Virus record (IMG/VR): IMGVR_UViG_3300042291_001568
Span: 1 to 64,000 of that record
Direction: 5' to 3' (one strand)
DNA length: 64,000 bases
Origin: a virus
Shown here: piece by piece, positions 31,777 through 31,902 of the stretch
Layout of the letters: each line of letters opens with the position of its first letter
How positions within the stretch are numbered: the first letter of the stretch is position 1
The notes under the pieces: generated by a model
Told to the model about the DNA's origin: nothing
The model's input: the letters and a program-made list of their open reading frames with translations, nothing else
Database searches by the model: none
Made by a program: the position numbers and the translations under genes

Positions 31777-31805
31777 TTCAAATCTCAGGAATGTATAATG
31801 ATCAT

Positions 31806-31902
31806 GTGTACCAGCGCATTAGCAAAATAGTGCGAGCACCCGAGTCAACATAATAGACTGGGTCCTGACTATCGGAGAAGTAAACTAATAGCGCTGGTAC
31901 AC
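31806..31902 (+). ncRNA. candidate rod-shaped small RNA cassette (97 nt)
   Basis: Starts at the predicted +1 of promoter 31781; perfect 12-bp terminal stem GTGTACCAGCGC/GCGCTGGTACAC plus inner stems. Confidence 0.6.

Follow-up and report, generated by a model that had tools for sequence, protein, structure and literature searches.

RNase III processing hairpins occur in the early region of phage T7 and in the early mRNAs of phage SP82, where irregular hairpins with internal loops lie between the early genes of a promoter-rich region, inside polycistronic RNAs and without a promoter of their own, and are recognised by shape, not by sequence. A rod-like form with an internal bubble and paired termini is also seen in the RNA polymerase-binding 6S RNA and Ms1; in 6S RNA, which is ~180 nt long, the central bubble is large and imitates an open promoter. 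Viral decoy rods are represented by adenovirus VA RNA I and the EBV EBERs, which are eukaryotic pol III transcripts of ~160 nt, and we know of no bacterial counterpart of such decoys. In T4-type phages, the PeSL (promoter-early stem-loop) cassettes place small, mostly orphan early genes behind near-identical strong promoters of the sigma-70 type, with stem-loops between the units; the repeated joints are where recombination lets related phages exchange units (Arbiol et al. 2010, PMC2839356). PeSL stem-loops are short, G/C-rich and intergenic, and they have been proposed to act on transcription that arrives from upstream; one that was tested lowered reporter expression to much the same degree as a strong terminator (PMC2839356). 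In addition, the cluster A mycobacteriophages L5, D29 and StarStuff make abundant stable non-coding RNAs from early lytic promoters; these derive from ~500 nt at one end of the genome, were shown by RNA-seq and northern blot, have a 3′ end that does not arise from a canonical terminator, and are of unknown function (PMC5712189).

The window analysed here is the first 64 kb (64,000 nt) of a 116.8-kb IMG/VR virus record with a CheckV completeness of 87%, from an uncultured lake phage of Actinobacteria, and it holds a promoter cassette whose cargo is a 97-nt imperfect hairpin, referred to below as the rod (Table 1). PeSL-like arrays and ORF-less early-promoter RNAs of actinophages (PMC5712189) are already known; what is new is a standard cassette that has a 97-nt hairpin at the predicted +1 as its sole cargo, and whose slot in a related phage contains an analogue of this shape. 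The resemblance to PeSL arrays lies in the small, mostly orphan genes, the near-identical strong promoters, the stem-loops between units and the joints at which homology to a related locus (L028) breaks off and resumes. The rod differs from a PeSL stem-loop in its length, its elaborate conserved interior, its start at the predicted +1 and its own promoter, and the array differs in its actinobacterial host and in an extended −10 promoter that lacks a −35 box. Like the mycobacteriophage RNAs, the rod belongs to an actinophage, is ORF-less and would be driven by an early promoter, but no sequence or Rfam link joins them, and the rod is a single hairpin known from sequence and contigs. With the T7 and SP82 hairpins it shares an irregular, looped form and a position between genes of a promoter-rich region, although it has its own promoter and is a candidate RNase III substrate only. 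A preliminary description of the locus had compared the rod with RNA polymerase-binding or protein-decoy RNAs. A likeness of this kind to 6S RNA has no specific support: the rod is about half the size of 6S RNA or less, carries a 4/12-nt asymmetric bubble that does not resemble an open promoter, has no Rfam match at E ≤ 10, and is unrelated in sequence to the syntenic rod of the other phage type.

The sole GenBank relative of the phage is DSL-LC01, a lake metagenome-assembled Actinomycetia phage with ~70% identity across small pieces, and blastn of the cassette with its surrounding 7.5 kb against GenBank phages returned weak DSL-LC01 matches alone, with the rod unmatched. Between ~19 and 43 kb of the window, the extended −10 promoter recurs in ~38 same-strand copies, and the 13-mer GGATTGTATAATG (the array consensus is also given as GGATTGTATAAT) has 37 matches against 1.05 expected, all on the + strand. 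Each unit of the array carries one small gene, and all promoters and genes lie on the + strand. Part of the units have a stereotyped A/C-rich leader of ~24 nt with a AAAGGACA ribosome-binding site; in others the ATG comes 6–7 nt past TATAAT, mostly 6, so their mRNAs should be leaderless. Stop codons frequently overlap the next promoter and terminators are rare. Perfect 11–12-bp hairpins without a U-tract stand directly before several other array promoters (27161–27194 before 27200, 28973–29001 before 29006, and 22238–22272 before 22288). Repeated promoters with small orphan genes and breakpoints at repeated joints are the features by which PeSL-type arrays are recognised, and both are found here; by this analogy, the array is the actinophage counterpart of the T4-type PeSL arrays.

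Table 1. Coordinates of the rod cassette, its neighbours and the repeated elements discussed in the text (window positions unless another locus is named).
Feature	Position	Strand	Remarks
Upstream cassette gene	31612..31776	+	Leaderless; 54-aa protein, basic N-terminus, CxxCG...C motif, no Pfam family
Cassette promoter	31781..31799	+	Upstream block AATCTCAGGAATG and extended −10 TGTATAAT (31792–31799)
Rod (97-nt imperfect hairpin)	31806..31902	+	33 predicted pairs; both ends in one 17-bp closing helix
5′ arm of closing helix	31806..31822	+	12 + 5 bp; pairs with 31885–31889 and 31891–31902; A31890 bulged
Asymmetric internal loop	31823..31826 (5′ side, CAAA); 31873–31884 (3′ side, CGGAGAAGTAAA)	+	MFE fold; 4 vs 12 nt
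Upper rod	31827..31872	+	Two helices, small internal loops, 9-nt apical loop 31847–31855
3′ arm of closing helix	31885..31902	+	From the fold and the inverted-repeat scan
Spacer	31903..31929	+	27 nt; unstructured, fast-evolving, no U-tract
Next cassette promoter	31930..31948	+	DNA homology to L028 resumes about here (31928)
Downstream gene	31980..32228	+	82-aa protein without assigned function; synteny anchor
Leaderless units	26920, 27977, 31594, 33991, 34492, 36380, 37573, 42971		ATG 6–7 nt after TATAAT
CGGCCTG-N19-TGACGGG copies	31451–31581; also 17133, 18504, 18638, 26547, 26609	+	
Repeat unit locus	L018 2755–2783		Listed with L028 1063–1309 and G001

The rod cassette lies between two protein-coding units of this array. 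The ATG of the 54-aa gene upstream is 6 nt after the TATAAT of promoter 31594, and its product has two metagenome homologues; the 82-aa protein downstream has eight, 67–95% identical, and an AlphaFold2 model that is unusable (mean pLDDT 54). No family could be assigned to either neighbour. The extended −10 of the rod cassette, TGTATAAT, has one mismatch to the array consensus GGATTGTATAAT and contains TATAAT at 31794–31799, while the promoter at the rod cassette of the relative L027 has the consensus GGATTG. G31806 lies 6 nt past TATAAT, in the same place as the A of the ATG in the leaderless units. The predicted +1 at G31806 is sound because leaderless cassettes of the array put this A 6–7 nt after TATAAT. 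The canonical promoter, the lack of an RBS and the expected +1 at 31806 had all been read off in the preliminary description, and each was borne out.

The sequence that begins at this position folds with a minimum free energy of −37.1 kcal/mol (z −5.3), and 0 of 200 shuffles were equally stable. An inverted-repeat match confirmed that GTGTACCAGCGC (31806–31817) is the perfect complement of 31891–31902; the closing helix continues through ATTAG/CTAAT (31818–22/31885–89), and beyond the internal loop the upper rod is formed by ATAGT/ACTAT (31827–31/31868–72) and ACCC.AGTC/GACTGGGT (31838–46/31856–63). The MFE fold thereby reproduces the succession of helices and bubble that had been proposed by eye (ATTAG/CTAAT, bubble, ATAGT/ACTAT, ACCC-AGTC/GACT-GGGT). 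Every rod pair is Watson-Crick in the window copy, which is single in the 116.8-kb record, and the rod remains an independent domain when folded in a 205-nt context that includes the next 108 nt. By our estimate, the chance of a perfect closing stem of at least 12 bp at one of 38 such starts is ~0.003. The minus strand of the window rod folds better than the plus strand (−44.3 kcal/mol, z −7.3), so folding energy alone cannot fix the strand.

A profile scan of JGI metagenomes yielded three relative loci, L027, L028 and L029. L027 is ~89–93% identical to the window across 3.2 kb and has the same cassette, in which 96 of the 97 rod bases are kept. This single difference compares with typically 4–8 differences in nearby 97-nt windows and a local background of 7–11%; at a 7% mismatch rate, the probability of at most one difference is 0.006, and only 2% of 97-nt windows equal it. 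The 27-nt spacer behind the rod has 5 differences from L027 (rod versus spacer, Fisher p 0.002). The one rod substitution, A31821G, which is also present in an RNA-library run (X19), replaces an A-U pair with G-U in the closing helix of the + strand, at a cost of 0.3 kcal/mol there against 4.6 on the − strand. In a further variant from a second RNA-library run (X20), the sole rod change is A31853G in the apical loop, whereas the spacer shows C31905T and nine deleted bases, so that 1 of 81 rod positions and 10 of 27 spacer positions are changed (p 2e-6). With X20, the number of lineages that preserve the rod but not the spacer rises to three. No rod substitutions besides these two are known; one converts an A-U pair to G-U and the other falls in a loop.

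Over 2.7 kb, L028 and L029 do not differ from each other, and both are more distant from the window than L027. Homology between the window and L028 stops at promoter 31594–31609 and resumes at ~31928, at the promoter of the 82-aa gene, with 85.5% DNA identity. Within the intervening slot, L028 has a small CxxC-protein cassette, a consensus promoter, a rod, the next promoter and the homologue of the 82-aa gene. Its rod, shared with L029, is 99 nt long with a 16-bp closing helix (−42.5 kcal/mol, z −4.7); it begins 2–3 nt past the predicted start, with the helix at +3, and the next promoter follows 8 nt behind. Here the + strand is the more stable by 4.5 kcal/mol, which points to G-U pairs. Alignment of the window and L028 rods scored no better than shuffles (p 0.41), and a covariance model of the window rod found no match at E ≤ 10 in L028. 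Shared CCCGAGT and CCTGAC were rejected as evidence of homology, since 6–7-mers are chance-expected and the global alignment equals shuffles. Thus slot, format, size and shape recur between the phage types and sequence does not. The evidence base is thin, with three close variants and one analogue, and because the two rods cannot be aligned, conservation of structure is argued from one G-U change and from analogy rather than from covariation.

The gene just upstream of the rod encodes a very small CxxCG...C protein in both phage types, of 54 aa in the window and 39 aa in L028 (416–535), and the two proteins are unalignable. As this gene and the rod sit inside the same non-homologous segment, they may be exchanged as one unit. 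The adjacent CxxC protein was considered as an RNA-binding partner of the rod and set aside; its support is adjacency in two phages, and one of the unalignable proteins is basic, the other acidic.

Lake-water sequencing runs also contain the locus. Eighteen DNA runs (X1–X18) hold the stretch and, as a possible source of the record, were left out as independent evidence. Two lake metatranscriptome runs contain part of it as assembled contigs, for which DNA carry-over is possible: a 255-nt contig in X19 (31779–32033), which carries A31821G, and a 156-nt contig in X20 (31822–31977). Uncovered parts of the 1-kb stretch and differing contig ends in the RNA libraries were excluded as evidence. The first base of the X19 contig lies 27 nt before the predicted start, and its other end lies beyond the next promoter, within gene 31980, so the contigs do not demonstrate a discrete 97-nt RNA. 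The earlier proposal of a small RNA gene in the cassette format therefore divides in two. It is upheld by the promoter, by the lack of an RBS or credible ORF, by a non-random hairpin under selection and by the recurrence of the shape in the related phage's slot; the discrete transcript of ~100 nt that went with it is not supported, given this contig and the absence of a terminator behind the rod.

Searches for known families agreed with the earlier statement that the rod belongs to no recognised one. Against Rfam, cmscan at the gathering score returned only a tRNA-Thr for the whole window, and at E ≤ 10 no match for 31300–32100; L028 300–1300 gave noise away from its rod. ARAGORN found no tRNA or tmRNA at the rod locus. 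The tRNA-Thr (14847–14919, anticodon TGT) is the sole Rfam or ARAGORN match in the window. An intrinsic terminator, in the form of a G+C-rich, short-looped hairpin with a U-tract behind it, was looked for and not found in 31806–31930, where the tail is TTCAAGTCC and the arms are 73 nt apart; in Actinobacteria, a hairpin that lacks a U-tract may still terminate transcription. Inverted repeats of the kind seen in retrons are present, but no RVT_1 match was found across the 116.8-kb record; the phage genes, the only ones searched for a Y RNA system, gave no TROVE match, and the locus has no tRNA-like module. The same record contains no match to a dsRBD protein. A search of the phage genome for sequences that the rod might target as an antisense RNA turned up chance-level 9–12-mers only, and pairing of the rod with the RBS of gene 31980 was rejected, with 5 complementary bases and the rod remaining a separate domain. 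A second copy of the rod is absent from the phage genome, from the related phage G001 and from DSL-LC01.

Wider searches for relatives behaved similarly. The 82-aa gene had no tblastn match among GenBank phages, and the L028-type stem pattern, single-protein locus searches with three neighbouring genes, and the A2 profile had none in IMG/VR, the A2 profile having none in GTDB genomes either. The sole IMG/VR match to the window stem pattern (L003) belongs to an unrelated AT-rich phage and was discarded as chance. A 17-mer of the promoter gave 48 single chance matches and no relative in GTDB genomes, and one real relative in IMG/VR, namely G001, which lacks both the 82-aa gene and the rod.

We regard the element as real and non-coding; purifying selection acts on it, and in three lineages it is linked to a promoter. 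The cassette probably specifies a small structured RNA or RNA signal. The reading we prefer, with a probability of roughly 0.35, is that a stable rod RNA is made from the cassette's own promoter and acts by its dsRNA shape. A host RNA polymerase of the sigma-A type would start from the extended −10 at or within one base of G31806, such that the first transcribed base would be the first base of the 17-bp closing helix. As no terminator lies behind the rod, polymerase probably reads on, and the proposed stable species would be a ~97-nt rod left by 3′ trimming or by a cut within the spacer, which is unstructured and evolves fast. Because both its termini would lie in one helix, such an RNA would resist nucleases that depend on a 5′ or a 3′ end. 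Since an equal-sized rod of unrelated sequence occupies the related phage's slot, the RNA most likely acts via its double-stranded shape; it may be a ligand or competitor of a dsRNA-recognising protein, rather than a target-pairing RNA, and the obvious candidate partner would be host RNase III.

A close rival reading, possible though on balance unlikely, makes the rod a cis-acting hairpin of the PeSL kind for read-through transcripts, serving as an attenuator or terminator, or as an RNase III processing or 3′-stabilising site like those of the T7 early region. About 20 co-directional promoters without terminators lie upstream and the rod would act just before the promoter of gene 31980, its own promoter being a mere cassette joint and the short RNA a by-product. 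The PeSL precedent is a strong one. PeSL stem-loops have been proposed to block build-up from distal promoters in this way (PMC2839356), U-less hairpins stand directly before several other array promoters, the X19 contig holds the rod together with upstream sequence, and a role of shape alone accounts for the unrelated sequence of the L028 rod. What such a hairpin leaves unexplained is why a full consensus promoter is kept directly before it in three lineages and why the helix starts at +1 (window, L027) or +3 (L028); furthermore, the rod has three times the length of the other hairpins between cassettes, its interior is conserved at 96/97, and it has no U-tract, with the X19 contig passing straight through it. 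The rod could also be the structured 5′ leader of a second, longer mRNA of gene 31980 from tandem promoters, in which the helix guards the transcript from 5′-end-dependent decay (RNase J/E) or acts in cis on polymerase, as the put RNAs of phage HK022 act in cis on the transcribing polymerase. No terminator separates the rod from gene 31980, the X19 contig links the rod to the start of this gene, the rod is directly upstream of the same gene in both phage types, and its helix lies at the first transcribed base, as in known 5′ stabilisers. We nonetheless consider a leader quite unlikely, given that gene 31980 owns a full promoter and a standard leader 30 nt behind the rod, that the intervening spacer is unconserved and varies from 8 to 27 nt, and that the rod folds independently of leader and RBS. 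A 10-bp hairpin would be enough for a stabiliser, and an RNA that binds polymerase would be expected to retain its sequence.

A DNA-level palindrome for which transcription is irrelevant, whether it binds a dimeric protein, forms a cruciform or signals recombination or replication, would fit the folding of both strands, with the minus strand folding better in the window copy, and the all-Watson-Crick pairing of that copy in cassettes that are reshuffled between phages. We judge it highly improbable: A31821G, found in L027 and X19, keeps its pairing only as + strand RNA, the L028 rod is stabler on the + strand, the exact register with the transcription start is left unexplained, and the surroundings of the rod show no evident recombinase, origin feature or shift in GC skew. 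Even less probable is a neutral remnant, left as a 3′ hairpin after gene loss or as a fold-back replication product; this would be in keeping with a single-copy element found in very few lineages and in no family, but the rod is far more conserved than its own flanking spacer, its promoter is kept in three lineages, and an independent rod of the same size and register is present in L028/L029. Least probable of all is a leaderless micro-ORF. The preliminary description had listed an 8-codon frame (MCTSALAK, ATG 31804) as the only ORF, which was wrong, in that GTG 31806, exactly at the array's leaderless start-codon position, opens a second frame of 15 codons; these are the longest + frames in the cassette, and all three frames are closed. 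The natural variants leave some room for a peptide, because A31853G retains the stop of the 15-codon frame (TAA to TAG) and A31821G is synonymous in the 8-codon frame, yet A31821G changes Ser to Gly in the 15-codon frame. Moreover, ATG 31804 is just 4 nt past the −10, too close for a 5′ end, the start codon is enclosed in the 17-bp helix, and conservation is even across the 50 nt past the 15-codon stop. The L028 rod lacks both frames; at its 5′ end there is a frame of only 2 codons, and its interior has an unrelated one of 26 codons. The question whether homologues conserve the peptide frame or the pairing, which had been posed at the outset, is thus answered in favour of pairing, as both frames are missing in L028 and the two natural substitutions retain the fold. 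A stable RNA made from the rod's own promoter accounts best for the retention of that promoter, the register with +1, the conservation of the interior and the freedom of sequence between phage types.

More speculatively, ~100-nt dsRNA rods could form a class within the early cassettes of freshwater actinophages, made in bulk early in infection as decoys for a dsRNA-recognising host protein. The target would then be an immune sensor or a nuclease, for example RNase III, with size, register and shape kept and sequence free. This functional analogy to VA RNA I and the EBERs, as abundant promoter-driven viral rods that occupy a host dsRNA-binding protein, strikes us as very doubtful; if it were true, bacterial viruses would have their own equivalent of adenovirus VA RNA. 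In large actinophage genomes, no part is understood less well than the arrays of tiny promoter-driven cassettes, which are usually read as lists of orphan proteins. Two more ORF-less structured cassettes lie in this array, at 29006 and 29540, and RNA-structure cassettes (the rod and at least two others) would mean that early host take-over by these abundant lake phages also uses RNA effectors or RNA punctuation. If the rod is only an attenuator hairpin, the PeSL principle would still be extended from T4-type coliphages to actinophages. The rod also lends itself to direct testing: as a compact candidate RNA of 97 nt behind a defined promoter, it can be assayed in vitro for its start, end, cleavage and binding partners without host culture.

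Several further observations concern the array and its relatives. The reverse complement of GGATTGTATAAT includes TACAAT, a fair −10 hexamer without the TG extension, on the minus strand at 31937–31949 and at every promoter copy, so each array promoter could in principle fire weakly backwards; at 31937–31949, such firing would in principle yield an antisense RNA across the rod. In L028, positions 1063–1309 form a very stable 246-nt ORF-less unit (−85.8 kcal/mol) with paired direct repeats, in which GATAAGGCTCT occurs twice alongside a repeat of the CCGTCCTC type. The tandem GATAAGGCTCT pair is present at two places in G001 (L030), 6492–6519 and 12265–12293. G001 also contains a 111-nt promoter-to-promoter unit at 15616–15727 with three hairpins and no ORF, one loop of which shows GAAGTAAA, an 8-mer that is also found in the single-stranded 3′ internal loop of the rod, with a chance expectation of ~0.1. 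The unit at 29006–29105 of the window is likewise ORF-less, lies between two promoters and forms three small hairpins. Its core (29028–29091) is 92% identical to L028 989–1052, whereas coding DNA is less conserved (80–85%), and its L028 counterpart (968–1062) occupies another slot, directly behind the homologue of the 82-aa gene. Finally, a bipartite motif, CGGCCTG-N19-TGACGGG, has eight + strand copies of fixed spacing against 0 expected (Table 1). Three tandem copies stand just upstream of promoter 31594, and in L027 and L028 a motif like it stands ahead of the corresponding promoter; the motif could represent a second class of promoter or a site bound by a regulator.
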